DNA of 32,000 nt. Source: Planctomycetales bacterium (GTDB lineage Bacteria > 4484-113 > JAFGCY01). This document shows, piece after piece, positions 3,025 to 26,018 of the stretch (position 1 is the stretch's first letter; each line of letters starts with the position of its first letter). Location: NCBI GenBank assembly GCA_022646745.1, contig CP060262.1, forward strand, positions 1,020,001-1,052,000, in the 5' to 3' direction. The notes beneath the pieces are model-generated. The model was not told the DNA's origin, searched no databases, and saw nothing but the letters and a program-made list of their open reading frames with translations. Both the position numbers and the translations under genes were made by a program.

Positions 3025-3452
3025 GTTTATATATTATCCGATACTTATAGACAAATGTAAAGTAGTTTGCAGATAAGCCGATGAATCTCTGGGTGCAGGG
3101 TGTTCCCTCGAAGTGTTTCCTCAGATTGGACTGCTTGTGTGTATTTCACAATCCGGCTAATCGGGGACAATAAATATGAACAGGGACCCGTGTTCCTGGA
3201 GCTAATTACCAGTGGGAAGCATAAGCGAGATGATTTCCCGGAGTCAGGCTGTGTATTTTGGAACGGTACCGCTGCCTGAGGAAGGATTGAAACAAGCAAG
3301 TGTTCCCCCCTCCCGGCTGTAAAGAGATTTCAGCCATTTCGCCTGGATAGATCCATTTGGGAAGGGCTGGGCCTGGCCTACCCGGTGGATTTGTCCGGGC
3401 GTCCTTTTTTTCTGCGACGCTTCCCCACTTTGCAATTGCTGCGCCGCGGCCT

Positions 3453-3461
3453 TAGAATCAG
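3453..3461 (+). promoter_or_regulatory. TAGAATCAG motif, candidate promoter (TTGCAA-17-TAGAAT) of the 3487 lipoprotein gene
   Basis: ttgcaa at 3430-3435, a 17-nt spacer, then tagaat at 3453-3458. The GTG start at 3487 is 29 nt downstream. Confidence 0.4.
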
Positions 3462-3486
3462 GTGGGTACCCCTGGTGGAGATAGGC

Positions 3487-10517: not shown

Positions 10518-11132
10518 ATGAGCTTCGTGGAACGCAATGGGAAGAATGCGGGATTGACTCCTGAACAGGAACTTAACCTGTGGGAGAACTACAATTCCCA
10601 CGCACGCGCCCGGATCGTCGAGGCCTACCAGCCGCTGGTCTTCCACATCTTCGGCCGCCTTGGGCTCAACCTCGGCGAAGAGGCTGTGGACCTCATCAGC
10701 GAAGGCAACGTTGGCCTGATCCAGGCGGTGGACAATTACGACTACCGCCGTGGAGTGCCTTTCAAGAGCTACGCCTACCTGCGGGTCAAGGGCGCGATGA
10801 TCGACTACCTGCGCAGCCAGAAGATCGCCGTGAAGGGCGGTGAGCTGCGGGAGTTCGATTTCTTCAGCGCACTGGCCGCCGAGGGCAAGGACAAGTACAG
10901 CATCGACCGGCTGGAGTTCGTGTTCGCGCACCTGCCGGCGCTGTCACCACGTGAATCACAGATCATCAACGGGTTGTACGTCGAAGGACTCAGCCAGCGT
11001 GAGCTGGCCACCCGCCTGAAGTGCACCCCGGCCAACATCAGCATCCTCCACGGCCGCGCCGTGAAGAGGCTGAAGAAGTTCGTCGCCGAGGAGCGCAAGC
11101 GCGGCATGGCCGCGGGCATCGCCTGGTTTTAG
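10518..11132 (+). CDS. Sigma-70 family sigma factor, FliA/WhiG/SigB-like (group 3-like), short
   Basis: Region 2 is YQPLVFHIFGRL...DLISEGNVGLIQAVDNYDYRRGVPFKSYAYLRVKGAMIDYLRSQ. Region 4 is LSPRESQIINGLYVEGLSQRELATRLKCTPANISILHGRAVKRLKKFV. The track ORF starts at TTG 10467; I prefer ATG 10518. Only about 40 aa separate regions 2 and 4. Confidence 0.8.
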   Translation: MSFVERNGKNAGLTPEQELNLWENYNSHARARIVEAYQPLVFHIFGRLGLNLGEEAVDLISEGNVGLIQAVDNYDYRRGVPFKSYAYLRVKGAMIDYLRSQKIAVKGGELREFDFFSALAAEGKDKYSIDRLEFVFAHLPALSPRESQIINGLYVEGLSQRELATRLKCTPANISILHGRAVKRLKKFVAEERKRGMAAGIAWF

Positions 11133-11150: not shown

Positions 11151-11231
11151 AGCACTTCACAGGTGTGGTTCGGACGCCATCAGCAATTATTCACTTGTAC
11201 GGGGCCTCGCTGAGAGGCCCCGTTTTTTTTT
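11151..11231 (+). repeat. Conserved ~80-nt element, copy 1, ending in a hairpin plus T-run
   Basis: agcacttcacaggtgtggttcggacgccatcagcaattattcacttgtac followed by the hairpin. It is near-identical to 16978-17056. It lies between the sigma gene stop (11132, +) and the A1 stop (11230-11232, -). Confidence 0.8.
11201..11231 (+). terminator. Intrinsic terminator (plus-strand polarity); in minus polarity the A-run comes first
   Basis: ggggcctc (11201-11208), loop gctga, gaggcccc (11214-11221), then g and T9 (11223-11231). The T-run overlaps the TAA stop of the convergent gene A1. Confidence 0.7.
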
Positions 11232-14010
11232 ATTCACTTCCGAATGCGTAAAGCACACCCGTCAGGGAGGTGATGTACAGCCGGCCTTCCTTGCTGATTG
11301 CGCATCCGCCCCAGAAATCACCACCGGTGGCAAAAGACCAGACTACGTTCCCATCAGTGTCCAGGGCGAATACAGTTCCATTGTGCCCACCGAAGTAGCA
11401 TGTGCCATTGGCATCAATTGATGGAGACATATCGGTCCCACCCTCACCGGTGAAAACCCATCTCTGCGAGCCATCGGGATTAACGGCATGCAGCCCACTG
11501 CCTGCCGTGCCGATTCCCGGTCCGACGGTGCCGATCAGAATCGTTCCATCTGGTGCGATGGATGGCTTGCATTCATGGATTTCAGCACCAGTGGGGTAGG
11601 ACCAGAGAAAGCTGCCATCCGCTGCCAGGGCCGTCAGCGTGCCAGATCCATCTCCGAAGTAGACCGTGCCGTCAGGGCCAATTGCCGGGCCGGACTGCAG
11701 GTTCGAGCCAGTATCGTAGGACCACTTGCTCTTTCCCTGGGGGGTCCAGGCTGACATGTGGGTTCCGTTCATTTCCGTATAAACCGTTCCGTCTGAGCCA
11801 ATGGCTGGAGAACTGATACCTGGCAGGGAAGGAATTGTGATCGAGTTCTTGCCATCAGGTGTCAGTCCCCGCGTGAAGTTTGCCACTGAGTTGGCGAAGA
11901 TCAGGCCATCACGGGCAACGGCAGGGCTGCCCCAGATCTGGAATCCGATGCTCTTCTGCCAGAGAACGAAGCCACCCTGTGAAACTGCAGTTACGTATCC
12001 GCCGTCATCGCCCACGCAGATGGCACCAGTTCCGCTGATTGACGGGCTGGAATGAATGGCATCAATGCCGATACCTGCCGACCAGTCCAGGTTCCCGTCA
12101 GGCGTCACCGCAACAAGCAATCCGTCCCAGCCACTGACATGGATGTTCCCATCTGCTCCGATGGTCGGAGAACTGTCACACTGTGCACCAGTAGGGAAAG
12201 TCCACAGCAGGTTGTCAGTCTGCGGCCCGGCGTATGGGCTCAGGCCCCTGCGGTCCGGGCCCATGCCCAGTGTGGACCATTCGGAAGGCAATGTGATGTC
12301 GATGCTTGCCGTCGCCTGCCCGCCCTTGTCGTCAGTCACACGCAGAACCGGAGTGAACCAGCCCATGTAGGGGTAGGTGTATGTCACCTGGGTCGATTGC
12401 CCTGACTGCTCGTAGCTGCCGTCGTTGTTGAAGTCCCACTCGTACAGCACGATCTCCCCGTCAGGGTCGAAACTGCCGTCCGCGTAGAACCGGACAACGA
12501 ACGGCGCATAGCCGGTCGTCACGTCTGAGTTCAGCACAGCTGTCGGCAGCTCGTTGGCAGGGTCTGTCCCCGTTACGCCGATCGCAACACTCGCCACTGC
12601 CCAGGCCGCGGAACTGTCCACCACCCGCAGCTTCGGGTTGTAGGTACCAGCCGCACCATACTCAAAGGAAGTCTCATAGCCGCTGGTGTCATCCTCGAAG
12701 AAGCCGTCACCGTCAAAGTCCCAGTAGATCCCCAGCGCTGATGCGTCATCCTCACTGTCCTGGGCCTCACCCGTGAAGTTCACCATCAACGGGGCCACTC
12801 CGCTCTGGGGGTCCGCGGCCAGGCTGACCGCCGGGCGCGTGTTGCCACTGATCAGCAGCGATATGCTGCCAAGCGCCACAGCCGTCCCGTCCGCGGAATG
12901 GCCGCGCACCAGCGGCCGGATGATGCCCGGACCGGGGATCGCCGCGAGCTGGAAGCCCGTTGCGTCGTCAAGCAAATCGAATATGCCGTCTCCATCCAGG
13001 TCCCAGTCGTACAGGTCCGCTCCGCCCGCCGTCAGCCCGATCGAGGCATTCAGGCTTGCGCTCACCGTATCCGTCTCCACGCTCAGGCCCGGCACCACTC
13101 CTTCCTCCACCGTCGCCGTGACCACCTCACTCAGGGGACTGCGGTTGCCGGAGAGGTCCACTGACTGGATCCCAACATGGACAGCACCTGACAGACCATC
13201 CAGCAGGTGGCGCGTACTTCCCTCGAGGTATGGCAACTGCTTCACGCCTGCTGCCTGGGGGTTGATGAAGGGCTTGCTGCCATAGCTGATCACATACCCG
13301 GCCAGGTCCGCCGCCGGTACGGGCAGCCAGCTCAGCTCAACACCTCCATTCACGGCCTGCGCTGCCAGACCCAGCGGCTGCGCCGGTGCCGTCGCGTCCG
13401 CCAGGTCAAGCGTGTTCAGGCCGAGCCCCACCAGGTCCAGCGAACTGCCAGGCTCAACGAGCACCATCACGAATGTGTTGCCCAATGTGCTCGTGAAGTC
13501 ATCCGCGCTGTCGCGCGCCAGCTCCAGCCTGACGTGGCTGTCCTGGAAGGGTCCGTGCCAGGCCCAGCGCTTGCTGCCATAGTCACTGACCCCCACCGAA
13601 TAGCGGGAACCGCTGCCCAGCAGGTTGGCATCAATGCTCAGCACCGCTGGCTGCTCGGCCTGCAGGCTGACCCGGTACATCACCCAGGCCGGCACTGAAT
13701 CACCATTCAGCCTCGCCGCCTCCTGGTTGCCGCTCACATCCCCGCCGCTGCTGAAATACTCCACACCGGGAATGAACTCTGTCCCATCGTTCAGCGACGA
13801 TCCACTGCGCAGCAGCTCCACCGCATACCCTGCGTCGTCAAGCTCCTCCCAGGGTTGCAGCCGGTCGGAGGGGAATTCAGGCAAACCTGCTTCCACCACC
13901 GGTTTGTTCGAGCTTGGGTCCGCATCTGTCCCTGCGATCTTTCCTGAACAGGAACCAAGCGATAAGACCATGATTGCCAGGAGCAATCCGGAGTGGATGC
14001 TTCTACTCAT
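11230..14010 (-). CDS. Modular surface lipoprotein A1: conserved stalk plus PQQ-like propeller
   Basis: The track ORF is 11230..14076. I prefer ATG 14010 (AGGGTGA upstream), giving MSRSIHSGLLLAIMVLSLGSCSG with a lipobox. Then come FPSDRLQPWEELD and an unrecognised domain (SIDANLLGSGSRYSVGVSDYGSKRWAWHGPFQDSHVRLE). An FN3-like segment (VNGGVELSWLPVPAADLAGYVISY) and three PKD-like segments (YDWDLDGDG, YWDFDGDG, YEWDFNNDG) follow. The C-terminal ~330 aa carry PQQ/BamB-like repeats (SSPTIGADGNIHVS, SGPAIGPDGTVYFGD). Confidence 0.85.
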   Translation of the reverse strand: MSRSIHSGLLLAIMVLSLGSCSGKIAGTDADPSSNKPVVEAGLPEFPSDRLQPWEELDDAGYAVELLRSGSSLNDGTEFIPGVEYFSSGGDVSGNQEAARLNGDSVPAWVMYRVSLQAEQPAVLSIDANLLGSGSRYSVGVSDYGSKRWAWHGPFQDSHVRLELARDSADDFTSTLGNTFVMVLVEPGSSLDLVGLGLNTLDLADATAPAQPLGLAAQAVNGGVELSWLPVPAADLAGYVISYGSKPFINPQAAGVKQLPYLEGSTRHLLDGLSGAVHVGIQSVDLSGNRSPLSEVVTATVEEGVVPGLSVETDTVSASLNASIGLTAGGADLYDWDLDGDGIFDLLDDATGFQLAAIPGPGIIRPLVRGHSADGTAVALGSISLLISGNTRPAVSLAADPQSGVAPLMVNFTGEAQDSEDDASALGIYWDFDGDGFFEDDTSGYETSFEYGAAGTYNPKLRVVDSSAAWAVASVAIGVTGTDPANELPTAVLNSDVTTGYAPFVVRFYADGSFDPDGEIVLYEWDFNNDGSYEQSGQSTQVTYTYPYMGWFTPVLRVTDDKGGQATASIDITLPSEWSTLGMGPDRRGLSPYAGPQTDNLLWTFPTGAQCDSSPTIGADGNIHVSGWDGLLVAVTPDGNLDWSAGIGIDAIHSSPSISGTGAICVGDDGGYVTAVSQGGFVLWQKSIGFQIWGSPAVARDGLIFANSVANFTRGLTPDGKNSITIPSLPGISSPAIGSDGTVYTEMNGTHMSAWTPQGKSKWSYDTGSNLQSGPAIGPDGTVYFGDGSGTLTALAADGSFLWSYPTGAEIHECKPSIAPDGTILIGTVGPGIGTAGSGLHAVNPDGSQRWVFTGEGGTDMSPSIDANGTCYFGGHNGTVFALDTDGNVVWSFATGGDFWGGCAISKEGRLYITSLTGVLYAFGSE
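12201..13875. repeat. Near-identical direct repeat, A1 copy (partner 15023-16697, offset 2822)
   Basis: Several shadow ORFs in the track are identical at offset 2822 (12573..12770 vs 15395..15592; 12773..13285 vs 15595..16107). Only a handful of substitutions are visible by eye. Both ends of the repeat lie inside the CDS. Confidence 0.9.
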
Positions 14011-14075
14011 ATTTATCACCCTATGTATTGAAATGACAACCGGGTATCCCGGAGTGGATATCAGTAACTGCCGCA

Positions 14076-16844
14076 TCAGTCACCAAATGCGTAGACAACT
14101 CCGTTGTTGCCGCAAATATACAGGCGGCCATCGGAACTGATTGCCGGTGATCCGGAGAAATCAGTGCCAGCATCATACGACCATGCTTCAGTCCCATCGG
14201 GATTAAGGGCATACACAAATCCCGCGTGGTCCGCAAAATACACCATTCCATCCGCTGCAATTGCCGGGGAGCTGTCTATGGCGCCGTTGGCGGAATAGCT
14301 CCATTTTGCATTTCCGTCCAGATCGACACAGTGGAGTTCACCACCAACCGTGCCCACACAGATGCTCAGGTCAGGGCCGATAGAAGGTTTGCTCTCACGG
14401 ATGTCGCTGCCACAGAAGTAGTTCCAGAGGAAATTCCCATCAAAGGACAGCGCTGTCAGCCAGTCGCTGTCATCCCCGAAGTACACTGTGCCATCAGGCC
14501 CGATTGCCGGGCTGCATGCTATCAGGGCCGCTGAATCGTAGGACCACAGGAGCACACCATTTGGGGAGTAGGATTCAATCTTCTGGTTGAGCGATTCCAG
14601 CACAAGGTTGCCATCACGGTCAATTGCCACGGATGTTGCTCCACCCTGGGTTGGCTCAAACATGCGGATGCTGCCTTCGCTTGAGACCCCTGTCACGTTG
14701 CCATTGATTGCATTGACATACACCGTCCCATCCCTGCCTATTGCCGGCGAGCCCCATACACTAAGGAACACTGAGGCTGTCCAGTATTCGGCACCATTTG
14801 CAGTCAATGCATACAGGAGTCCATTATCGGTGCCGACATAGACATTTCCTTCCGGGCCAATGGTTGGAGTACTGTGCAGATTCGTGCCTGAGGCGTAGGT
14901 CAGCCAGTCCTGCGTCCCTTCCGGTGTCAAGGCCAGTACGTATCCGTCATGACGACTGACATATATCCTTCCATCGGCACCTATTGAAGGCGAGGAATCA
15001 ACCACGGACAAGGTCGGAAAGCTCCACAGCAGGTTGCTCGTCTGCGGCCCGGCGTATGGGCTCAGGCCCCTGCGGTCCGGACCCATGCCGTATGTTGACC
15101 ATTCGGAAGGCAGCGTGATGTCAATGTATGCCGTCGCCTGCCCGCCCTTGTCGTCAGTCACACGCAGAACCGGAGTGAACCAGCCCATGTAGGGGTAGGT
15201 GTATGTCACCTGGGTCGATTGCCCTGACTGCTCGTAGCTGCCGTCGTTGTTGAAGTCCCACTCGTACAGCACGATCTCCCCGTCAGGGTCGAAACTGCCG
15301 TCCGCGTAGAACCGGACAACGAACGGCGCATAGCCGGTCGTCACGTCTGAGTTCAGCACAGCTGTCGGCAGCTCGTTGGCAGGGTCTGTCCCCGTTACGC
15401 CGATCGCAACACTCGCCACTGCCCAGGCCGCGGAACTGTCCACCACCCGCAGCTTCGGGTTGTAGGTACCAGCCGCACCATACTCAAAGGAAGTCTCATA
15501 GCCGCTGGTGTCATCCTCGAAGAAGCCGTCACCGTCAAAGTCCCAGTAGATCCCCAGCGCTGATGCGTCATCCTCACTGTCCTGGGCCTCACCCGTGAAG
15601 TTCACCATCAACGGGGCCACTCCGCTCTGGGGGTCCGCGGCCAGGCTGACCGCCGGGCGCGTGTTGCCACTGATCAGCAGCGATATGCTGCCAAGCGCCA
15701 CAGCCGTCCCGTCCGCGGAATGGCCGCGCACCAGCGGCCGGATGATGCCCGGACCGGGGATCGCCGCGAGCTGGAAGCCCGTTGCGTCGTCAAGCAAATC
15801 GAATATGCCGTCTCCATCCAGGTCCCAGTCGTACAGGTCCGCTCCGCCCGCCGTCAGCCCGATCGAGGCATTCAGGCTTGCGCTCACCGTATCCGTCTCC
15901 ACGCTCAGGCCCGGCACCACTCCTTCCTCCACCGTCGCCGTGACCACCTCACTCAGGGGACTGCGGTTGCCGGAGAGGTCCACTGACTGGATCCCCACAT
16001 GGACTGCACCGGACAGACCATCCAGCAGGTGGCGCGTACTTCCCTCGAGGTATGGCAACTGCTTCACGCCAGCTGCCTGGGGGTTGATGAAGGGCTTGCT
16101 GCCATAGCTGATCACATACCCGGCCAGGTCCGCCGCCGGTACGGGCAGCCAGCTCAGCTCAACACCTCCATTCACGGCCTGCGCTGCCAGACCCAGCGGC
16201 TGCGCCGGTGCCGTCGCGTCCGCCAGGTCAAGCGTGTTCAGGCCGAGCCCCACCAGGTCCAGCGAACTGCCAGGCTCAACGAGCACCATCACGAATGTGT
16301 TGCCCAATGTGCTCGTGAAGTCATCCGCGCTGTCGCGCGCCAGCTCCAGCCTGACGTGGCTGTCCTGGAAGGGTCCGTGCCAGGCCCAGCGCTTGCTGCC
16401 ATAGTCACTGACCCCCACCGAATAGCGGGAACCGCTGCCCAGCAGGTTGGCATCAATGCTCAGCACCGCCGGCTGCTCGGACTGCAGGCTGACCCGGTAC
16501 ATCACCCAGGCCGGCACTGAATCACCATTCAGCCTCGCCGCCTCCTGGTTGCTGCTCACATCCCCGCCGCTGCTGAAATACTGCACACCGGGAATGAACT
16601 CCGTAGCTTCATTCAGCGACGATCCACTGCGCAGCAGCTCCACCGCATGCCCTGCGTCGTCAAGCTCCTCCCAGGGTTGCAGCCGGTCGGAGGGGAGTGT
16701 CGAGACTGGCCCTTGTTGGGCTTCAAATGCAGACGCGTCCACGCCCGCGAACCCGTTTGGAGCAGACCCTTTCAATCCGCTGCTGCAGGAAACCACCAAC
16801 ATCCCACTCGTTAGCAGGACCAGGAGATACACCACAACTTTCAT
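14076..16844 (-). CDS. Modular surface lipoprotein A2: same stalk as A1, diverged PQQ-like propeller
   Basis: The track ORF starts at TTG 16856; I prefer ATG 16844, giving MKVVVYLLVLLTSGMLVVSCSSG with a lipobox. Residues from LPSDRLQPWEELD to ...DITLPSEWST are almost identical to A1. The C-terminal propeller matches A1 at only about half of positions by eye. Confidence 0.85.
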   Translation of the reverse strand: MKVVVYLLVLLTSGMLVVSCSSGLKGSAPNGFAGVDASAFEAQQGPVSTLPSDRLQPWEELDDAGHAVELLRSGSSLNEATEFIPGVQYFSSGGDVSSNQEAARLNGDSVPAWVMYRVSLQSEQPAVLSIDANLLGSGSRYSVGVSDYGSKRWAWHGPFQDSHVRLELARDSADDFTSTLGNTFVMVLVEPGSSLDLVGLGLNTLDLADATAPAQPLGLAAQAVNGGVELSWLPVPAADLAGYVISYGSKPFINPQAAGVKQLPYLEGSTRHLLDGLSGAVHVGIQSVDLSGNRSPLSEVVTATVEEGVVPGLSVETDTVSASLNASIGLTAGGADLYDWDLDGDGIFDLLDDATGFQLAAIPGPGIIRPLVRGHSADGTAVALGSISLLISGNTRPAVSLAADPQSGVAPLMVNFTGEAQDSEDDASALGIYWDFDGDGFFEDDTSGYETSFEYGAAGTYNPKLRVVDSSAAWAVASVAIGVTGTDPANELPTAVLNSDVTTGYAPFVVRFYADGSFDPDGEIVLYEWDFNNDGSYEQSGQSTQVTYTYPYMGWFTPVLRVTDDKGGQATAYIDITLPSEWSTYGMGPDRRGLSPYAGPQTSNLLWSFPTLSVVDSSPSIGADGRIYVSRHDGYVLALTPEGTQDWLTYASGTNLHSTPTIGPEGNVYVGTDNGLLYALTANGAEYWTASVFLSVWGSPAIGRDGTVYVNAINGNVTGVSSEGSIRMFEPTQGGATSVAIDRDGNLVLESLNQKIESYSPNGVLLWSYDSAALIACSPAIGPDGTVYFGDDSDWLTALSFDGNFLWNYFCGSDIRESKPSIGPDLSICVGTVGGELHCVDLDGNAKWSYSANGAIDSSPAIAADGMVYFADHAGFVYALNPDGTEAWSYDAGTDFSGSPAISSDGRLYICGNNGVVYAFGD
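15023..16697. repeat. Near-identical direct repeat, A2 copy (partner 12201-13875)
   Basis: See the A1 copy. Identity decays at ...ccacagcaggttg (low end) and at ccggtcggagggga (high end). Confidence 0.9.
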
Positions 16845-16899: not shown

Positions 16900-16977
16900 G
16901 CACCGTGCTGGGAGAAATTCCCCAAGCTCATGTGTAGGGTGCCTGAATTGGCCGGCACACTGTCCAGGGACTCATCG

Positions 16978-17056
16978 AGCACTTCACAGGTGTGGTTCGG
17001 ACGCCATTAGCAATTATTCACTTGTACGGGGCCCCGCTGAGGGACCCCGTTTTTTT
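16978..17056 (+). repeat. Conserved ~80-nt element, copy 2
   Basis: agcacttcacaggtgtggttcggacgccattagcaattattcacttgtac followed by the hairpin. It lies immediately after the B1 stop (17055-17057), with no plus-strand gene upstream. Confidence 0.8.
17028..17056 (+). terminator. Hairpin plus T7 (terminator-like), copy 2
   Basis: ggggcccc (17028-17035), loop gctga, gggacccc (17041-17048), then g and T7 (17050-17056). Relative to copy 1, one stem pair changed T-A to C-G (compensatory) and one C-A mismatch appeared. Confidence 0.6.
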
Positions 17057-19919
17057 AGCGAATTTCAACGGCATATTTGCAGCTGAACTGCTCCCTGAAA
17101 ACAAAAGCCAGGTGACCATTGATGACTGCAGCGGAAAGCGCCGCAGGATTCTGGAAAGCGATCTCCGGGGAACTGCCATTTCCCCAGACTGTTGGATGGT
17201 TACCCGAAGGAGTTGCAGACTCCAATACCACCAACTGGCTTGCTTCATCATCCAGATACCCGATTGCCGGCATGCCATCCAGTTCCACCAGGGTGGGATA
17301 GAATCCCACACGATGTTCCGGACTGCCATCGAGTTTCATGAAGTTGAAGTCGTAGTAGATCTCGGGATCATCCTTTACTGCCCTCCCGTAGAATAGGGAC
17401 CCGTCGATCAGCTCAACAAAGGCAATACTCGCCTTGCCATTGATTTCCCTCAAGGAGCAGTTGTAGCCATACTTCAATCCGGGTTCGGAAAAATAGAGAA
17501 CATTGTCATTCCAATCCGTCTGAGTTGTCCCGTCCGCAGTGTCACTGTAGGCAAACCTGAGCTCATCTGCATCGAAGTCATAGTAGGCAATCGCAGGCTT
17601 GCCGGAAATCTCAGCAAGCGAACTTTCGGTAATGCCTGCTGTGACGACTACAACCGGCTCTGACCAGTCACCGGGATTCATACCATTGCTGGTACTGCTG
17701 CGGCTGTAACGCAGTTCATCCAGTAAGGGTTCCTCATATGCAATTGCCGGGTTGCCGTTGATAATGGCAAGCGAAGGATTCTCGCCAGTATCATCCTCAA
17801 AATCAACTGTTACGAATGACCAGTCATTGAAGCTGAGTCCTTCCACGGTGGAACTGCGCGCATACTTCAGGTCCTGGGGATCCAGATGCCTGTATGCGAT
17901 TGCCGGTGTGCCATCCACCTCCTGCAGGCCTTCGCGGGATCCAACGAAATCGCCCTGGGTCTCCAGTTCTATGACAGTCCAGGGCGCAACCATCCCGAGT
18001 GGGTCTGCTGGCCTGGCAAACTTCAGGTGATATGGAGCAATGGAATTGAAGCTGACTGCAGGCTTGCCACCGACCAGGGCCAGGTTTGGGTTGCCACCGG
18101 TCTGGTTTCCTGCATTCCCTTCCTCAATTGTGACAACCTCCCAGCCTGTAACCGTGTACTCCATCTGCCAAGTGGCAGTGCCACCTTTGCTGTCAGATAC
18201 TCGCAGACCGATGTCGTAATATCCGGGATCAGGGATGTTGAATTCGTACAGGGGGTCCGTACCGTTGTTAGTTTCGAACGTCCCGTCCCCGTCCAGGTCC
18301 CATTCATACTGCGTGATCGTTGCCCCGAATGCGGCACGAGATCCGGAGGCATCCAGGCTGACATCCGTGCTGTAGTAGCCTTTCGGCGGGTCGGTATTGA
18401 ATTCAGCATCCGGCGCGCTGAAATCTTCTCCCATCGGCAGCACCGGTACGCTGGCAACACTCCATGCACCCTGGGAGTCCTGGGCCCGGAAGCGGGCGTT
18501 GAACAGGCCGGGGATGAGGTATGTGAAAGGATCGGGGCTGGCGGTGTCCGTATCCGGTTCGAAGATGCCATCGCCATTGAAGTCCCATGCGTAGGCCAGC
18601 TCAGCACCGTCCTCCGCATCCTCGGCGGTGCCGGCAAATGTCACATCAAGCGGAGTGCTGCCGCTCTGCGGACTGGCAACCGCTGTAACATAGGGCGCAC
18701 TGTTGCCACTGACAAGCAGGCTCAGCCCGCCAAGCGCCACGGCCTCGCCGGATGCATCAATGGCCCGTACACGGGGACGGATGATACCCGTGGCGGAAGT
18801 GTCAGCAGTCTGGCTGCCGCTGCTGTCATTCTCAACTTCAAACACGCCGTCGCCGTCCAGGTCCCAGTCATAACTGTCGGCTCCGCTGGCAGTCAACTGG
18901 ATCACATCATTGATCGAACCGCCGGGAGCGCTGCCCGTCAGCAACAGTGCCGGAGCATCACCAGCCAGAGGGCCGGCATCCATCACCGCAGTCGCTGCGC
19001 TTTCATTTCCGGAGAAGTCAACGGCGCTGATCGCAACCCATGTGCGATCCGACAGGCCGCTGAGCAGGTGCCGGCTGCTGCCCTCTAGGTAAGCGAGCCG
19101 CTGCACACCGGCTGAGTGCACTGAGATGAATGAGCGACTGGCGTAGTAGACCGCGTAGCCTGCCAGGTCAGCCTCCAGCACGGGCGACCATTCCAGCTCA
19201 ATTCCGCCTGCCACCGGGCTGAGAGCCAGCCCGGCAGGTGCTGACGGGGCCTGGGCATCCGCGATCTCATACTGGTTGACACCGACGCCAACCACATCGA
19301 CTCTGCTGCCGGTATTTACAAGCACCGTGATGAAGGCATTGCCAAGTGTGGAAGTCAGGTCGCCGCCTGCTTCGGGCAGGGCTTCAATCCGTACGTGGTT
19401 GTCGCTGAACGGCCCATGCCAGTCCCAGCGAGCATGTCCGTAATCGGAGATTCCGACGAAGTACTCGCTGCCGCTGCCCAGCAGGTTGGCATCGACGCTG
19501 ACGATGCCGGGCTGCTCATCCTGCAGGCTGACCCGGTACATCGCATAGCTCGTGCCAGAGTCATCCGTGCCGTTCAGGCGGCTGGCTTCACCGTTGGCAG
19601 CCACGTCACCGCTTTCGAGGAAGCGCTGGATGCCTGGCGTGAAGTCCGTGTTGCCATTGATTGAGGAGGAAATCCTGTAAGGCTCAGGCTGCACATGGCC
19701 ACTGGCATCCAGCTGCTCCCAGGGCTGAATGCCGTCCGCGGGCAGCCCAGAAGGGAACCCCGAACCTTCCCCTCCGGCAAGCAATGTATCCTGGGAATGC
19801 AAGTCCTCAACAGGACCGGACTTTGGATTCCCCAGCCGGTCCTGTTCAACGCTTGACGAACAGGCGGAAACTGCCAGCAACAGAGCTGCGATGCAGCCCG
19901 TAATCAGTATGCGTGCCAT
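17055..19919 (-). CDS. Modular surface lipoprotein B1: conserved stalk plus NPAIAY-type propeller
   Basis: The signal peptide is MARILITGCIAALLLAVSACSS (lipobox), followed by LPADGIQPWEQLD. The shared domain reads SVDANLLGSGSEYFVGISDYGHARWDWHGPFSDNHVRIE. FN3-like and three PKD-like segments follow. The C-terminal ~360 aa carry repeats such as GTPAIAYRHLDPQDLKYARSS, GNPAIAYEEPLLDELRYSRSS and GKPAIAYYDFDADELRFAYSD. Confidence 0.85.
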   Translation of the reverse strand: MARILITGCIAALLLAVSACSSSVEQDRLGNPKSGPVEDLHSQDTLLAGGEGSGFPSGLPADGIQPWEQLDASGHVQPEPYRISSSINGNTDFTPGIQRFLESGDVAANGEASRLNGTDDSGTSYAMYRVSLQDEQPGIVSVDANLLGSGSEYFVGISDYGHARWDWHGPFSDNHVRIEALPEAGGDLTSTLGNAFITVLVNTGSRVDVVGVGVNQYEIADAQAPSAPAGLALSPVAGGIELEWSPVLEADLAGYAVYYASRSFISVHSAGVQRLAYLEGSSRHLLSGLSDRTWVAISAVDFSGNESAATAVMDAGPLAGDAPALLLTGSAPGGSINDVIQLTASGADSYDWDLDGDGVFEVENDSSGSQTADTSATGIIRPRVRAIDASGEAVALGGLSLLVSGNSAPYVTAVASPQSGSTPLDVTFAGTAEDAEDGAELAYAWDFNGDGIFEPDTDTASPDPFTYLIPGLFNARFRAQDSQGAWSVASVPVLPMGEDFSAPDAEFNTDPPKGYYSTDVSLDASGSRAAFGATITQYEWDLDGDGTFETNNGTDPLYEFNIPDPGYYDIGLRVSDSKGGTATWQMEYTVTGWEVVTIEEGNAGNQTGGNPNLALVGGKPAVSFNSIAPYHLKFARPADPLGMVAPWTVIELETQGDFVGSREGLQEVDGTPAIAYRHLDPQDLKYARSSTVEGLSFNDWSFVTVDFEDDTGENPSLAIINGNPAIAYEEPLLDELRYSRSSTSNGMNPGDWSEPVVVVTAGITESSLAEISGKPAIAYYDFDADELRFAYSDTADGTTQTDWNDNVLYFSEPGLKYGYNCSLREINGKASIAFVELIDGSLFYGRAVKDDPEIYYDFNFMKLDGSPEHRVGFYPTLVELDGMPAIGYLDDEASQLVVLESATPSGNHPTVWGNGSSPEIAFQNPAALSAAVINGHLAFVFREQFSCKYAVEIR

Positions 19920-19960
19920 GCTGTGCCTTCCTTTACAGTCAGGCTGATTCTAGCAGAGCC
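18737..19960. repeat. Near-identical direct repeat, B1 copy (partner 21595-22815)
   Basis: The repeat covers the first ~395 codons plus 41 nt of 5' leader. The offset is 2858 at the low end and 2855 at the high end because a 45/42-nt replaced patch lies inside it. Confidence 0.9.
19944..19952 (-). promoter_or_regulatory. TAGAATCAG motif, candidate -10 element upstream of B1
   Basis: The plus strand reads ctgattcta. On the minus strand TAGAAT ends 28 nt upstream of ATG 19919, and AAGGAAGG (SD-like) lies between them. Confidence 0.35.
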
Positions 19961-19987: not shown

Positions 19988-22774
19988 TCATGGAAGGTAA
20001 TTCATGAATCCCAGCGAGGCTGACTCAGACGTCATGCACATCAGGGGACTGCCATTCAGGACTGTGAGATCGGGCCATGTTGTCACTTTATCGGGAAGCA
20101 ACAACAGCGCCGGATCCCACTGCTGGCCGGCGGGATCCTGGGAGCGCATGTAGCTCAGCTTGTATCCGGGTGCATTGAAGAGGATCGCCGGGTTTCCATG
20201 CACCAGCTCGAGGCTGGGAGGCGAATTCGTGGCAATGATCTCCGCGAGATCCTGAGGCTCGCCCCAGCTGCTGCCGTCTGCAGCCAGGGCGCGGACGTAC
20301 AGCAGCCTGTCCTCAATGTTGTTAATGTAGACGACCGCAGGCATGCCATTGACGATCTGCATGTCCGCCCACGTGCCCGTGTTGGCCGTATCATCAACAG
20401 TCAGCAGCGCATCCCAGGCCAAACCGGTGGCATCCTGTGCCCTACTGAAGACCAGGTGGTCATTTGTAGTGTCCATGCAGGCGATGGCCGGCCGGCCTTC
20501 GACGACCTGCATGGAGGCGTATGCGGCCTGGATGCCGTCATCGATAATCTGTGGCGTGCTCCAGCTGGTGCCGGTAGCATCAGAGGCCCTGATGTAGCGC
20601 AGCCGCGCGCTGCCGTTGCTGTAGGCAATGGCCGGATTGCCATCCACAATGATCATGTCATTGCCGGAACCTGCGTTTGCGGAATCAAGCAGCTGAGTGC
20701 TGGACCAGGCCGTTCCGTTGGAATCCAGGCTCCTCATATAGCGCAGTTCGTTGTCAATCAGCACCAGGAAGCAGATGGCCGGGTTTCCGTTAACGATAAC
20801 CAGCTTGGGGAAGAACGGCGGGTTGGCAACCGTTGCGATGAGCTGCGGAGAGCCCCAGTTGCTGGCCTGAGGATCCACTGCCCGTACATAGCGGACGGTG
20901 TTGTCACTCAGGTCGGAATACGAAATGGCGGGATTGCCATTGACAATCGCAATGCTGGGGAACTGGCCAGTTGCCGCGGTGCTGTCGTCCACTATGCGCA
21001 GAGGCGACCAGCCGCGCACGACAAGCTGGGCACTGTCCAGCGCGAAAGCACCGCTTTCATCGGTGACACGCAGCCCCAGGGAAAAGTAGCCACGCTCCGC
21101 CATGGACATCGTGAACTGCGGAATTCCTGCGGTGGCAGTCTCGAAACTGCCATCCCCGTCAGTATCCCATTCATACAGCACAATGTTCCCGTCCGAACTG
21201 CTGGATGCCGCGTTCAAGGTGAACAATTCACCGGTGGTGACACTGTTGGGGTTGATTTCCAGCACGGCAACCGGGCCCGCTGCTTCGCTGACCAGCACTG
21301 GCACTGTGTCGGCATCCCAGGCACCCTGGGAATCTTCTACCCGGAATTTCACGCCATAGAGGCCGGGGGTTGTGTAATTCTGAACGGCAGGGCTGAGTGT
21401 GTCGGTGTCATCCTCGAAAATACCATCCCCGTCAAAGTCCCATGCGTAGGAAAGTTCAGAAGACTCATCCTCACTGTCCTCCGCAGTTCCCGTGAAGGTC
21501 ACGTCCAGCGGGGCCGGTCCGGACTGCGGATCTGCTACAGCGCTGGCAACTGGACGCGAGTTGCCTGTGATGATCAGCGACAGGCCACCTAGGGCCACGG
21601 CCTCGCCGGAGGCATCACGGGCCCGAACACGAGGACGGATGATGCCGGTGGCGGAAGTGTCAGCAATCTGGCTGCCGCTATTGTCATTCTCAACTTCAAA
21701 CACTCCGTCGCCGTCCAGGTCCCAGTCATAGCTGTCCGCTCCGCTGGCAGTCAACTGGATCACATCATTGATCGAACCGCCGGGAGCGCTGCCCGTCAGC
21801 AACAGTGCTGGAGCATCACCAGCCAGAGGGCTGGCATCCATCACCGCAGTCGCTGCGCTTTCATTTCCGGAGAAGTCAACGGCGCTGATCGCAATCCATG
21901 TGCGCTCCGACAGGCCGCTGAGCAGGTGCCGGCTGCTGCCCTCGAGGTAAGCGAGCCGCTGCACACCGGCTGAGTGCACTGAGATGAATGAGCGACTGGC
22001 ATAGTAGACCGCATAGCCTGCCAGGTCAGCCTCCAGCACGGGCGACCATTCCAGCTCAATTCCGCCTGCCACCGAGCTGAGAGCCAGCCCGGCAGGTGCT
22101 GACGGGGCCTGGGCATCCGCGATCTCATACTGGTTGACACCGACGCCAACCACATCGACTCTGCTGCCGGTATTTACAAGCACCGTGATGAAGGCATTGC
22201 CAAGTGTGGAAGTCAGGTCGCCGCCTGCTTCGGGCAGGGCTTCAATCCGTACGTGGCTGTCGCTGAACGGCCCATGCCAGTCCCAGCGAGCATGTCCGTA
22301 ATCGGAGATTCCGACGAAGTACTCGCTGCCGCTGCCCAGCAGGTTGGCATCGACGCTGACGATGCCGGGCTGCTCATCCTGCAGGCTGACCCGGTACATC
22401 GCATAGCTCGTGCCCGAGTCATCCGTGCCGTTCAGGCGGCTGGCTTCACCGTTGGCAGCCACGTCACCGCTTTCGAGGAAGCGCTGGATACCTGGCGTGA
22501 AGTCGGTGTTGCCATTGATGGACGCGGCACTGCGATCAGCAGGCACAATGAAGCCCTGCGCATCCAGCTGCTCCCAGGGCTGCAGGCCGTCCGCGGGCAG
22601 CCCGGAAGGGAACCCCGAACCTTCCCCTCCGGCAAGCAATGTATCCTGGGAATGCAAGTCCTCAACAGGACCGGACTTTGGATTCCCCAGCCGGTCCTGT
22701 TCAACGCTTGACGAACAGGCGGAAACTGCCAGCAACAGAGCTGCGATGCAGCCCGTAATCAGTATGCGTGCCAT
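19988..22774 (-). CDS. Modular surface lipoprotein B2: B1-identical N-terminus, distinct PKD region, 7-blade NPAIAY-type propeller
   Basis: The first ~395 aa are almost identical to B1. Seven blades are readable: IAIVNGNPAISY, LVIVNGNPAICF, MIIVDGNPAIAY, MQVVEGRPAIAC, MQIVNGMPAVVY, LELVHGNPAILF and LTVLNGSPLMCM. Each is followed by L-x-Y-x-R and ...G-x-x-W. Confidence 0.85.
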   Translation of the reverse strand: MARILITGCIAALLLAVSACSSSVEQDRLGNPKSGPVEDLHSQDTLLAGGEGSGFPSGLPADGLQPWEQLDAQGFIVPADRSAASINGNTDFTPGIQRFLESGDVAANGEASRLNGTDDSGTSYAMYRVSLQDEQPGIVSVDANLLGSGSEYFVGISDYGHARWDWHGPFSDSHVRIEALPEAGGDLTSTLGNAFITVLVNTGSRVDVVGVGVNQYEIADAQAPSAPAGLALSSVAGGIELEWSPVLEADLAGYAVYYASRSFISVHSAGVQRLAYLEGSSRHLLSGLSERTWIAISAVDFSGNESAATAVMDASPLAGDAPALLLTGSAPGGSINDVIQLTASGADSYDWDLDGDGVFEVENDNSGSQIADTSATGIIRPRVRARDASGEAVALGGLSLIITGNSRPVASAVADPQSGPAPLDVTFTGTAEDSEDESSELSYAWDFDGDGIFEDDTDTLSPAVQNYTTPGLYGVKFRVEDSQGAWDADTVPVLVSEAAGPVAVLEINPNSVTTGELFTLNAASSSSDGNIVLYEWDTDGDGSFETATAGIPQFTMSMAERGYFSLGLRVTDESGAFALDSAQLVVRGWSPLRIVDDSTAATGQFPSIAIVNGNPAISYSDLSDNTVRYVRAVDPQASNWGSPQLIATVANPPFFPKLVIVNGNPAICFLVLIDNELRYMRSLDSNGTAWSSTQLLDSANAGSGNDMIIVDGNPAIAYSNGSARLRYIRASDATGTSWSTPQIIDDGIQAAYASMQVVEGRPAIACMDTTNDHLVFSRAQDATGLAWDALLTVDDTANTGTWADMQIVNGMPAVVYINNIEDRLLYVRALAADGSSWGEPQDLAEIIATNSPPSLELVHGNPAILFNAPGYKLSYMRSQDPAGQQWDPALLLLPDKVTTWPDLTVLNGSPLMCMTSESASLGFMNYLP

Positions 22775-22815
22775 GCTGTGCCTTCCTTTACAGTCAGGCT
22801 GATTCTAGCAGAGCC
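21595..22815. repeat. Near-identical direct repeat, B2 copy (partner 18737-19960)
   Basis: See the B1 copy. Identity runs through the start codon into the leader and stops after tagcagagcc (22806-22815). Confidence 0.9.
22799..22807 (-). promoter_or_regulatory. TAGAATCAG motif, candidate -10 element upstream of B2
   Basis: Same sequence and spacing as upstream of B1. A TTGGCC hexamer lies 17 nt upstream of TAGAAT on the minus strand. Confidence 0.35.
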
Positions 22816-25634: not shown

Positions 25635-25662
25635 GGAAGTACCCCTGTAAGTATTGCTGGCA

Positions 25663-25671
25663 CTGATTCTA
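25663..25671 (-). promoter_or_regulatory. TAGAATCAG motif, candidate -10 element upstream of C
   Basis: The plus strand reads ctgattcta. TAGAAT ends 32 nt upstream of ATG 25634. Confidence 0.35.
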
Positions 25672-25703
25672 TCAGGATTTAACCCTGTGGGGCAGGGACA
25701 CTT

Positions 25704-26018
25704 TCAGGCGGTGACCCGGAATGTCACCCAGATCTCGCTGATCTTGCCGTCGCGCATGCGGATGAATTCCCCGACCTTGATGTCACCCACGCCGTAGGCC
25801 ACGTATGCGGTATTGCCACCGTAGGCCTCCTGCACGGGCTCAAAGCTGTTGAATCCGGCGGCGTATTCCCAGCAGCAGTCCAGGAAGGCATCCGCCCCGT
25901 CGAAGTCATGCATCGGGCTGCGGAACACAAGGTCATCCGCCAGCCGCGCGCGGGCCCCGGCCCGGTCATTGCCGACCCAGCAGCCATAGTATTCGCTGAT
26001 CAACTGCCTGATTTCCAA
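25704..26018 (-). CDS. NTF2/SnoaL-like small protein
   Basis: 104 aa: (M)EIRQLISEYYGCWVGNDRAGARARLADDLVFRSPMHDFDGADAFLDCCWEYAAG...GKISEIWVTF. This is the typical SnoaL-like cone-fold pattern. The start is TTG with GGGAGGA 5 nt upstream. Confidence 0.65.
   Translation of the reverse strand: MEIRQLISEYYGCWVGNDRAGARARLADDLVFRSPMHDFDGADAFLDCCWEYAAGFNSFEPVQEAYGGNTAYVAYGVGDIKVGEFIRMRDGKISEIWVTFRVTA

Follow-up and report, generated by a model that had tools for sequence, protein, structure and literature searches.

Near-identical stalks between diverged ends suggest interlocus gene conversion in a tandem lipoprotein gene array of an uncultured bacterium

Organization of the lipoprotein gene array

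The stretch of DNA analyzed here, in the following called the window, comprises 32,000 nt of contig CP060262.1 (assembly GCA_022646745.1). It contains a tandem array of five lipoprotein genes, A1 to A5, all of which are full length and start with an ATG and a lipobox-containing signal peptide; partial gene copies were not found in the window. Each member of the array is composed of a beta-sandwich, an FN3 domain, PKD domains and a C-terminal propeller head. The array is adjoined by a gene for a sigma-70-family factor, which is found next to it in all relatives and which was used as synteny anchor for locus searches. The genes and elements are as follows:

10518..11132, plus strand: sigma-70-family factor (regions 2 and 4), convergent with A1
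11151..11229, plus strand: 79-nt element, copy 1, directly after the A1 stop codon, with a strong hairpin followed by T8 at its end
11230..14010, minus strand: A1, gene for a 926-aa lipoprotein (open reading frame and translation)
14076..16844, minus strand: A2, 922-aa paralog of A1 (open reading frame, translation and Pfam)
16978..17056, plus strand: 79-nt element, copy 2, between A3 and A2, after the A3 stop codon
17055..19919, minus strand: A3, 954-aa paralog with a non-PQQ repeat head, apparent acceptor of the second tract
19988..22774, minus strand: A4, 928-aa paralog, apparent donor of the second tract
22842..25634, minus strand: A5, 930-aa paralog, fifth member of the array

The two copies of the 79-nt element are 95% identical and the same pair is present in the syntenic locus L001 of a relative. 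An origin of A2 and A1 by unequal crossover between these elements was considered and rejected, as the spacer of 65 nt between A2 and A1 does not contain the element.

In A1, the lipobox LGSC is followed by a linker, a beta-sandwich, an FN3 domain, three PKD/Ig-like domains and an eight-bladed PQQ/BamB-like propeller head, and Pfam assigns PKD, PQQ_2 and Beta-prop_ACSF4. The AlphaFold2 model of A1 has a pLDDT of 90 and its Foldseek matches are eight-bladed propellers, YxaL and BamB. The signal peptide of A2 (MKVVVY..., lipobox VVSC) is distinct from that of A1, and the PQQ-type propeller head of A2 is also its own, with 50% identity to the head of A1. The propellers of A1/A2 score 67.8 and 83.9 bits with the profile PF13360 (PQQ_2; cut-off 27.6), placing both heads among the PQQ-like eight-bladed propellers. 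Queried against the PDB, the sequences of the A3 head and of the N-terminal part resulted in only weak Ig/FN3 matches, and a fold search with the N-terminal model returned only generic beta-sandwich and FN3 matches.

A near-identical tract with abrupt ends

The stalks of A1 and A2, which precede the propeller heads, are nearly identical over a discrete tract, which is divided into a core and two flanking zones:

12196..13878, minus strand: near-identical tract as present in A1, covering the stalk from PSDRLQPWE until shortly after ITLPSEWST
15018..16700, minus strand: A2 copy of the near-identical tract, at an offset of +2822
13648..13878, minus strand: 5' zone in A1 (A2 equivalent 16470-16700), 13 differences in 231 nt
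12307..13647, minus strand: core in A1 (A2 equivalent 15129-16469), 4 differences in 1341 nt
12196..12306, minus strand: 3' zone in A1 (A2 equivalent 15018-15128), 16 copy-specific differences in 111 nt

The two copies differ at 33 of 1683 nt at an offset of exactly 2822 nt, and a repeat search of the window resulted in the same spacing, in agreement with the offset alignment. An earlier note on this DNA had described near-identical sequence at this offset, which is hereby confirmed with limits at 12196-13878 and 15018-16700; the differing signal peptides, the junction motif DITLPSEWST and the propellers of about 50% identity were also found as described there. Its statement that the substitutions are mostly synonymous applies to the core, where four differences are synonymous and none is non-synonymous (dS 0.012), and does not extend to the tract as a whole with about 17 synonymous to 16 non-synonymous differences. 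The core contains perfect runs of 867 and 398 nt, and in L006, a second assembly of the same strain, both core copies are identical. The sites at 13171-13200, which had been given as examples of substitutions, are three of the four variable core sites; their assignment to the copies differs between the two assemblies of the strain and they may be no true differences between the copies.

In the 5' zone dS is 0.076 and dN 0.053, and its 13 differences mark each copy in all assemblies compared. The 3' zone, which spans the junction between PKD3 and the propeller, has a dS of 0.43. Both zones differ from the core in Fisher tests (5' zone 1.5e-8; 3' zone 1.8e-15). In windows of 50 nt at the offset of 2822, the identity is 0.86-1.00 from 12200 to 13850 and beyond the tract it falls to 0.16-0.26 upstream of 13900 and to 0.4-0.6 below 12200; outside the zones the overall identity is 22% upstream and 46% downstream. 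The identity is lost in one step at the 5' end and in two steps at the 3' end. From 5' to 3' dS is 2.25 for signal peptide and linker, 0.076, 0.012, 0.43 and 2.41 for the head, the values at both ends being saturated. In a GENECONV-style permutation test, using the polymorphic sites of a codon alignment of the five paralogs and 2000 permutations, the longest matching run between A1 and A2 was 558 compared to a permutation maximum of 49. The checks that the earlier note had proposed therefore agree with its reading: the identity profile is step-like and shows no gradual decay, the recombination signal is highly significant and dS per segment is low only within the tract. The A1/A2 tract is nested and comprises at least two age classes.

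Two further explanations for the composition of the tract were rejected. A diversity-generating retroelement does not fit, since an adenine bias is missing (A in 8 of the 33 mismatches in one copy and in 8 of 33 in the other), all substitution types occur among the mismatches, the tract is far longer than a typical repeat pair of such elements and the available annotation of the neighbouring genes contains no reverse transcriptase domain; nor does the annotation of the neighbourhood contain a transposase, an integrase or another site-specific recombinase. GC-biased conversion as cause of the higher GC content of the stalk was discarded as well, as stalk GC3 lies at 0.68-0.82 throughout the family, unconverted members included.

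Comparison with orthologs and relatives

B1 is the ortholog of A1 in the syntenic locus L001, of which the sigma factor is 93% identical. For the stalk, A1 and B1 differ with a dS of 1.03 and a dN of 0.27 compared to a dS of 0.03 and a dN of 0.007 between A1 and A2, i.e., within the tract the paralogs are far closer to each other than the orthologs. For the heads the order is reversed, with a dN of 0.41 for A1-B1, 0.53 for A2-B1 and 0.58 for A1-A2. The head tree ((A1,B1),A2), constructed by neighbour-joining without bootstrap, is accordingly in conflict with the likewise unbootstrapped stalk tree ((A1,A2),B1). Judged from these sequences, the stalks of A1 and A2 appear to have coalesced after speciation while the heads did not, and the stalks would have coalesced long after the heads, because the core dS is 0.012, the heads are saturated and the dS to the ortholog stalk is 1.03. 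This contrast between stalk and head together with the ortholog comparison rules out a duplication followed by uniform divergence, as the earlier note had argued. Near-identity is moreover no property of the family, because adjacent paralog stalks in the relatives L001, L011 and L012 are only 64-68% identical.

Sites common to B1 are mixed between the A1 and A2 copies, and the signal peptide of B1 shares 36% identity with that of A2 and 26% with that of A1 (40 columns). An A2 ortholog was not found in any other genome, so that the age of the A1/A2 tandem rests on the head divergence and on the unbootstrapped tree. When the A2 head was used alone as protein query, generic PQQ propellers dominated the matches listed and A2 itself was absent from them, so that the search was uninformative for orthologs or fragments of the A2 head. 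The exact-sequence look-up of three reading frames (A1 from two alternative starts and A3) gave zero matches; clusters and variants were reached via homolog search and cluster listing. In the JGI metagenomes, an exact 35-nt query from the A2 signal-peptide region had zero matches and a protein-guided scan found just distant PKD proteins of 24-53% identity. A sigma-anchored scan of representative genomes resulted in only three relevant loci.

A second tract between A3 and A4

A second near-identical tract with abrupt ends is present in the same array:

18740..19960, minus strand: second near-identical tract as present in A3 (about 21598-22815 in A4)

This tract is about 1.2 kb long and about 98% identical, begins 41 nt upstream of the ATG and includes a diverged island at 19662-19704 with a 3-nt indel. 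In the permutation test its longest run was 107 with a maximum of 26. The tree of the PKD region joins A3 to its ortholog in L001 and A4 to its orthologs in L011/L012; inside the tract, both A3 and A4 group with the A4 orthologs (unbootstrapped segment trees), so that here, as for A1/A2/B1, tract and flanks yield conflicting phylogenies. In the sister genome L017, A4 is 100% identical to A4 of the window, its A3' is only 82-93% identical to A3 of the window and the A3'/A4 pair of L017 is 85% identical. Because A4 is the same in both genomes while A3 has changed, these comparisons show A4 as the apparent donor and A3 as the apparent acceptor. The A3/A4 tract is a demonstrable conversion of a pre-existing gene.

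In other assemblies the A3/A4 sites are shuffled, which could be an effect of the assemblers and not real exchange. The head of L017 A3' is replaced relative to A3 of the window. A4 of L016 carries a patch without known donor, and the 5' end of A5 is a mosaic between strains. Pairwise comparison revealed no recent tract between A5 and the other members of the array, and a formation of A4 as a recent A3/A5 crossover hybrid was rejected, as A4 and A5 are nowhere near-identical.

Population assemblies and a fused gene

The L006 assembly contains both copies of the A1/A2 tract with the same 29 copy-specific sites, and over 18,284 nt it differs from the window at four positions, all of them at the four variable core sites 13174, 13183, 13189 and 13249. 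On the contigs L007, L008 and L009 from three samples of an activated-sludge time series, ERZ27309115, ERZ27309061 and ERZ27309083, a fused gene is found instead, which is composed of the A2 5' end, one stalk and the A1 head and encodes the protein P0120. This is the kind of chimeric variant that the earlier note had suggested to look for. What is absent from these contigs is one repeat unit:

12307..15128, minus strand: 2822-nt repeat unit, containing one copy of the stalk together with the A2 head, the spacer of 65 nt and the 5' end of A1

The register of this deletion is arbitrary because the core is identical. The diagnostic sites of the fused gene are A2-type at the 5' end and A1-type at the 3' end, and for L007 and L008 a crossover would lie, in terms of the window haplotypes, between 13249 and 13189. 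Between A3 and the sigma factor gene, one PQQ-type gene is present in L001 and in the fused-gene contigs and none in L017. Both the two-copy and the fused structure are known from assembled contigs. L099 and L100 terminate precisely at 15129, which is the final base of the core, and the start of L100 falls precisely on 19960; assembly thus breaks off at the fork where both exits exist. Such fork ends come from the samples ERZ27309117 and ERZ28655783 of the time series. The four core differences could be consensus or bubble-popping effects of the assemblers.

Interlocus gene conversion as the probable mechanism

We consider it probable, at roughly 75%, that interlocus gene conversion, i.e., concerted evolution, homogenised the stalks of the old tandem paralogs A1 and A2. 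This reading builds directly on what the sequences show, namely the tract limits, the dS contrast, the conflict with the ortholog, the fused variant observed elsewhere and the donor and acceptor of the A3/A4 tract. The stalk would recently have been overwritten by non-reciprocal homologous recombination between misaligned direct repeats, for which a dependence on RecA and a direction between A1 and A2 are what we infer. An older event may have reached about 12196-13878 and a very recent one 12307-13647, which would make it probably at least two nested events, their number again being deduced from the zones. The tract ends would be the positions where the paralogs cease to align: the 5' limit would coincide with the LQPWE motif, which is common to the family and where the mature protein starts, and the 3' limit with the LPSEWS junction between PKD3 and propeller, with signal peptides and heads retaining their old divergence. 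The resulting direct repeat of 1.3-1.7 kb would itself be a substrate for recombination, and in some strains a crossover within it may have deleted one 2822-nt unit resulting in the single fused gene; the two-gene state would then have preceded the fused state.

Comparison with known systems

Well-known cases of interlocus gene conversion and concerted evolution are babA/babB of Helicobacter pylori, tufA/tufB and the rRNA operons. The A1/A2 and A3/A4 tracts resemble known gene conversion in their discrete extent with diverged flanks, in paralogs that are far closer within the tract than orthologs, in a tract tree conflicting with the flank tree, in an unchanged donor and a changed acceptor (A3/A4) and in affecting a multigene family of surface-exposed proteins (predicted for A1-A5). 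Differences are the uncultured host (NCBI label Planctomycetales; a relative is labelled UBP7), the uncharacterised family and the conservation of a long internal stalk, composed of five beta-sandwich domains, between two diverged ends, i.e., signal peptide and propeller head. The process is known, the protein family is uncharacterised. Gene conversion or concerted evolution was also described for Mycobacterium tuberculosis antigen families (PMC13061034) and gene conversion for polyketide synthases (PMC8256042), and paralogs being more similar than orthologs is an established criterion (PMC2720389).

P0120 is similar to the Lepore-type hybrids in that the upstream paralog supplies the 5' end, the downstream paralog the 3' end and exactly one unit of 2822 nt is missing; unlike these, it is seen just in metagenome contigs of related strains. 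Such hybrids formed by crossover between tandem paralogs include haemoglobin Lepore, the red/green opsin hybrids and the chimeric emm-like genes of Streptococcus pyogenes.

BamB is a protein of about 390 aa that consists of the propeller only and binds the POTRA domains of BamA. The A1/A2 heads share the BamB/YxaL fold with a target-normalised Foldseek TM-score of 0.70-0.83, and BamB is also a lipoprotein; however, the sequence identity to BamB is 16-20% and the propellers of A1/A2 (922-926 aa) are preceded by a stalk of about 550 aa with a beta-sandwich, an FN3 domain and three PKD-like domains. From their sequences and predicted folds, nothing suggests a role of A1/A2 in the BAM complex.

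Programmed antigenic-variation cassettes are known as pilE/pilS in Neisseria, vlsE in Borrelia, tprK in Treponema and msp2 in Anaplasma. Similar to these systems, repeat recombination in genes for surface proteins leads to new combinations in the array, and conserved segments flank variable ones. However, the array consists of five complete genes instead of one expressed gene with silent, truncated or promoterless donors, it has no single expression site, and its homogenised part is the constant stalk and not a variable region.

Alternative explanations

The earlier note had left open whether the stalk was homogenised or different heads were grafted onto one stalk, and homogenisation of older paralogs fits better, leaving the graft as the lesser alternative for A1/A2. 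A recent graft or duplicative insertion, which we regard as unlikely though deserving serious consideration, would start from an ancestral single gene of the fused type that gained the A2 head, the spacer, the A1 5' end and a duplicated stalk by homologous recombination through the stalk, unequal or of the Campbell type, the partner being either a diverged paralog or another strain's allele; the stalks would be identical as a new duplicate without any homogenisation. It would account for the single PQQ-type gene at this position in L001 and its lack in L017, for the fused-gene contigs from three samples and for the B1 signal peptide being marginally nearer to that of A2, and the locus is clearly open to inter-strain exchange, as seen in the A4 patch of L016 and the mosaic A5 5' end. 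However, a donor with the A2 head or the A1 signal peptide was not found in any collection searched, and a Campbell donor would need a stalk that already matches the core at about 100% although the two zones diverge by 6% and 14%, by which the homogenisation is simply shifted into the donor. Moreover, the diagnostic sites of the fused gene are exactly as expected if a two-gene parent underwent a single crossover within its identical core, a deletion between 1.3-kb direct repeats is the easier event, and the sister tract A3/A4 demonstrably arose by conversion of a pre-existing gene.

An assembly artefact, i.e., mis-assembly or polishing that made the two copies or their near-identity, is highly improbable. 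The differences between the window and L006 are confined to the four variable core sites, which leaves the read assignment within the repeat uncertain, and both assemblies may share underlying data. However, the two-copy structure recurs in L006, the reading frames of both copies are intact and differ in their heads and signal peptides, each copy keeps its own state at the 29 differences of the flanking zones in L006 as well as in short-read contigs, the short-read contigs L099 and L100 break off precisely where a true repeat would produce a fork, and graded dS zones would be unexpected.

Extreme purifying selection on the stalk DNA without recombination, e.g., by an embedded RNA or an overlapping gene, could point to the stalk as the most conserved part of the family at the protein level and to the long antisense open reading frames overlapping the A1/A2 stalk, but it is already refuted by the dS contrast between paralogs and orthologs, as stalk synonymous sites are free to change (dS 1.03 for A1-B1; 64-68% nucleotide identity in other pairs) and an Rfam scan of the window gave zero matches.

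Implications for the lipoprotein family

Beyond gene conversion as such, the array might be an evolved head-shuffling system, in which conversion keeps the stalk identical for the reassortment of signal peptides, stalks, heads and gene number; this we regard as doubtful. If true, it would provide a population-level repertoire of surface lipoproteins, e.g., against phages or predators or for different substrates, which would be similar to antigenic variation yet built from complete genes, and such a system would have given rise to the fused gene, the L017 A3' head, the foreign patch in A4 of L016 and the shuffling of the A3/A4 sites.

Read as gene conversion, the locus would be a clean case of concerted evolution in progress in an environmental bacterium, with two tracts of different age, one of them with identifiable donor and acceptor and the other one with a structural variant across it in the same population. 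Such repeats break short-read assemblies at predictable points and make copy-specific variant calls unreliable, and orthology calls and trees of this lipoprotein family mislead unless stalk and head are handled apart. The stalk appears to be the constant part of the lipoproteins, and this result suggests that the C-terminal propellers are the part that diversifies, and probably binds ligands, in an abundant uncharacterised family.

Gene Array and Neighborhood

The A1/A2 tract lies in an array of five paralogous genes in tandem, all on the minus strand, whose products have a length of approximately 925–955 aa and each carry a lipoprotein signal peptide. The source contig has a size of 4.11 Mb and is labeled as a Planctomycetales MAG at NCBI; the label on a close relative is UBP7.

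Genes of the array and of its surroundings
3385-5544, plus strand: lipoprotein gene encoding a family-like N-terminal domain, a single PKD domain and ~400 C-terminal aa without assignment
7709-9988, plus strand: lipoprotein gene with two PQQ-type propellers, without stalk
10518-11132, plus strand: sigma-70-family factor (regions 2 and 4; 204 aa), convergent with A1
11230-14010, minus strand: A1, lipobox LGSC
14076-16844, minus strand: A2, lipobox VVSC
17055-19919, minus strand: A3, lipobox VSAC
19988-22774, minus strand: A4, lipobox VSAC
22842-25634, minus strand: A5, lipobox ISAC

With the genes at 3385-5544 and 7709-9988 the surroundings are rich in PKD and propeller lipoproteins. HxlR and flavodoxin-like genes are among the neighbors, DprA flanks the array at one side and SnoaL-like, MscS, CAP and FlhB genes at the other, and the gene annotation of the neighborhood contains no transposase, integrase or reverse transcriptase. 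The sigma factor adjoins the array in every relative and is 93–99% identical across them, while the array proteins there reach only 40–70%; a regulatory tie between both is possible. The public annotation of the A2 start is probably wrong: the NCBI protein (P0002, 888 aa) begins 34 codons 3′ of the MKVVVY start (16737-16844) and would as annotated be without a lipoprotein signal peptide; the MKVVVY start is used in the ENA gene call for a fused gene described below.

A 79-nt element is present in two copies of 95% identity (11151-11229 and 16978-17056, plus strand) directly 3′ of the A1 and A3 stop codons. On the plus strand it consists of ~45 conserved nt followed by a strong hairpin and T8, with fold z-scores of −5.0 for the first and −0.6 for the second copy and without a match in Rfam. 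The related locus L001 (GCA_024645305.1) has counterparts at 2248-2310 and 5213-5278, after B1, the A1 ortholog, and after the A3-like gene. The first copy could serve as terminator for sigma. For the second, upstream of which the plus strand carries no gene, a small RNA is possible, or else a bidirectional terminator module moving with array units.

Protein Architecture

PKD domains are the only Pfam family found in all five proteins. PQQ_2/BamB-type propeller repeats occupy the C-terminal third of A1 and A2, the heads of A3–A5 are built of another repeat type (motif V.G.PAI.Y...L.Y.RA), and no Pfam family covers the first ~350 residues of the array proteins. An AlphaFold2 model of A1 (alignment of 53 sequences, mean pLDDT 90) comprises an N-terminal signal helix, a disordered linker (residues 20–41), a beta-sandwich (55–200), an FN3-like domain (216–300), three Ig/PKD-like sandwiches (310–575) and an eight-bladed propeller (600–926), which in a structure search resembles designed 8-blade propellers, YxaL and BamB. 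This domain order and these matches make the picture of a stalk with a head, drawn in the earlier note, sound. Residues 42–330 modeled separately (pLDDT 92) matched generic sandwich and FN3 modules only. The family is large, with 118 matches (E ≤ 1e-10) and several paralogs per genome, and is uncharacterized, as is its N-terminal domain.

Some family members (P0004, P0005) have ~1450 aa and two propeller heads with an extra PKD domain in between. An LPSEWS-type junction motif also precedes their second head, suggesting that this junction is a recurrent domain-shuffling point. GC3 of the stalk is 0.68–0.82 in all family members; that of the head is 0.54–0.62 in A1, A2, A3, B1 and A3′ of the sister genome L017, and 0.73–0.79 in A4 and A5. 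The low-GC heads may be later arrivals or under other constraints.

The A1/A2 Tract

At an offset of 2822, identity is 86–100% in each 50-nt window from 12200 to 13850, only 16–26% upstream of 13900 and 40–60% below 12200. This confirms the near-identical tract with diverged ends reported from the sequence alone; the profile is step-like, and the gradual decay that would have refuted the note is not seen. Identity ends on one side with the LQPWE motif, which is family-wide and marks where the mature protein starts, and on the other with the LPSEWS motif at the PKD3/propeller junction. The copies differ at 33 positions within 12196-13878, which fall into three classes: 13 differences in 231 nt of the 5′ zone (13648-13878), four in 1341 nt of the core (12307-13647), which includes perfect runs of 867 and 398 nt, and 16 in 111 nt of the 3′ zone (12196-12306; Fisher test against the core: 5′ zone, 1.5e-8; 3′ zone, 1.8e-15).

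Divergence of A1 and A2 per segment (Nei-Gojobori)
Signal peptide and linker: dS 2.25, dN 1.00
5′ zone: dS 0.076, dN 0.053
Core: dS 0.012, dN 0
3′ zone: dS 0.43, dN 0.091
Propeller: dS 2.41, dN 0.58

The dS value of the core stands against 2.25 and 2.41 in the ends. When the polymorphic sites in the codon alignment of the five genes were permuted, the maximum in 2000 permutations was 49, compared to a longest A1/A2 matching run of 558.

Young Stalks and Old Heads

L001 is syntenic, with the A3-like gene, B1 (60% identical to A1) and a convergent sigma factor 93% identical to that of the window. In the stalk, dS is 1.03 (dN 0.27) between A1 and B1 compared to 0.03 (dN 0.007) between A1 and A2. 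The heads are diverged in all pairs (A1-B1: dS 2.27, dN 0.41; A1-A2: dS 2.46, dN 0.58; A2-B1: dS saturated, dN 0.53), and the neighbor-joining topology of the PQQ-type heads, with outgroups taken from the rest of the family, is ((A1,B1),A2). Taken together, these substitution values and the tree indicate that the A1 and A2 heads separated at or before speciation and that the stalks coalesced long afterwards. Young stalks with old heads are the defining signature of interlocus gene conversion. The near-identity is not general in the family, since stalk identity is only 64–68% between the remaining paralog pairs of the window and between neighboring paralogs of three related genomes. The claim that simple duplication followed by uniform divergence cannot account for the tract is supported by the dS contrast with the ortholog and by the run test.

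A Fused Gene in Related Assemblies

The two-copy structure was also found in L006 (GCA_020440665.1), which is 99.978% identical to the window across 18.3 kb including both genes and both repeat copies, and whose contig terminates within the A3/A4 repeat. An assembly artefact is therefore poorly supported and very improbable. Chimeric variants, sought as the earlier note had suggested, were detected in three megahit contigs of three ENA samples (L007–L009; 99.4–99.8% identical to the window). These carry a single gene between A3 and sigma, encoding P0120 (930 aa), which joins the A2 5′ end, the stalk and the A1 head; compared to the two-gene arrangement, exactly one 2822-nt unit is missing. All 13 diagnostic sites in the 5′ zone of the fused gene are A2-type, and all 16 in its 3′ zone are A1-type.

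Bases at the four core sites (13249; 13189, 13183, 13174)
Window A1: A; ATT
Window A2: T; CAG
L006, both copies: A; CAG
L007 and L008: T; ATT
L009: A; CAG

The L007/L008 pattern is that expected of a single crossover at 13249-13189 between the window haplotypes; the four differences that separate L006 from the window all sit on these core sites, and therefore their assignment to a copy is unreliable. Two further contigs (L099, L100) run from A3 via the A2 5′ end and stalk and halt precisely at 15129, where the identical core has its last base; L100 begins precisely at 19960, where the A3/A4 repeat has its first. Assemblers therefore halt at a fork when two exits exist, suggesting that the run-through fused contigs most likely derive from genomes with a single exit and hence with a real fused gene.

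The polarity of the two states is probably from two genes to one. In the main rival explanation, the fused-type gene is ancestral, and duplicative recombination added the A2 head and A1 5′ end in the window strain. Outgroups holding one PQQ-type gene or none at the A1/A2 position agree with this, but no donor was found, the donor would need a stalk homogenized beforehand and the site pattern is that of a simple deletion, so that we regard this order of events as unlikely, at roughly one chance in five.

The A3/A4 Tract and Strain-Level Mosaicism

A3 and A4 are ~98% identical from 19960/22815 (41 nt 5′ of the ATG) to ~18740/21598, with a longest matching run of 107 compared to a permutation maximum of 26. 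In segment trees, A3 and A4 together join A4-like genes inside the tract; in the PKD region 3′ of it, A3 groups with the L001 A3-like gene and A4 with the A4-like genes of L011 and L012. In L017, whose flanks are 94–97% identical to the window, A4 is 100% identical to window A4, whereas A3′ reaches only 82–93% identity to window A3 inside the tract; the A3′/A4 pair of L017 itself is 85% identical. With A4 unchanged and A3 changed, the 5′ 1.2 kb of A3 was therefore replaced by A4 sequence in the window lineage, upon an older partial homogenization.

A diverged island of 43 nt that includes a 3-nt indel (A3 19662-19704, A4 ~22520-22559; residues ~64–85) breaks the tract; identity around it is otherwise 98–100%, and it is gene-specific in every assembly examined. 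Its A1/A2 counterpart falls in the 5′ zone (dN/dS ~0.7). The island corresponds to a loop in the N-terminal sandwich, which may be a specificity patch under selection that resists homogenization.

L016 and L009 share a sample, and across most of A5-A4 the L016 sequence matches that of the window with 100% identity. At 4480-5420 an 870-nt patch, 70–77% identical, replaces window A4 21650-22520, with no donor among the loci compared, and the A5 5′ end and upstream region are mosaic (1000-2050; window 25000-26000). This suggests import, with other strains or paralogs located elsewhere in the genome as sources. Other assemblies have A4-type residues in A3 (positions 235 and 316) and A3-type residues in A4 (291, 295, 316), compatible with ongoing short-patch exchange; they could also stem from bubble popping in short-read assembly.

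Mechanism and Implications

The best explanation is general, presumably RecA-dependent, homologous recombination between misaligned direct repeats of the array. Heteroduplex would form in the alignable part of the A1/A2 paralogs, and resolution without crossover would copy one stalk onto the other. The tract limits are the points at which the paralogs stop aligning (LQPWE, LPSEWS). The presence of three divergence classes suggests that a wider, older event was followed by a narrower, very recent one. The homogenized stalk repeat would then permit a crossover that removes one unit and leaves the fused gene. Purifying selection at the nucleotide level, poorly supported and of practically negligible probability, is ruled out because synonymous sites of the same stalk change freely between species. 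A diversity-generating retroelement was excluded by analysis of the tract mismatches.

No new mechanism is involved. Multigene families of bacteria, those for surface proteins among them, are known to undergo concerted evolution through gene conversion, and the process in A1/A2 and A3/A4 is the same; P0120 corresponds to a Lepore-type hybrid. Cassette-type antigenic variation does not apply, because all five array genes are complete.

Array size varies among relatives, with two genes in L011 and L012, three in L017, at least two in L001 and five in the window. A1 and A2 are absent from L017, the gene at its A3 position (12856-15648) keeps the A3-type 5′ 1.5 kb with a different PKD3 and head, and, as in L001 (Bx) and L012, a PQQ-type family gene (16905-19673, 922 aa) lies on the far side of sigma. 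Replacement of heads and gain or loss of genes are therefore common at the array locus.
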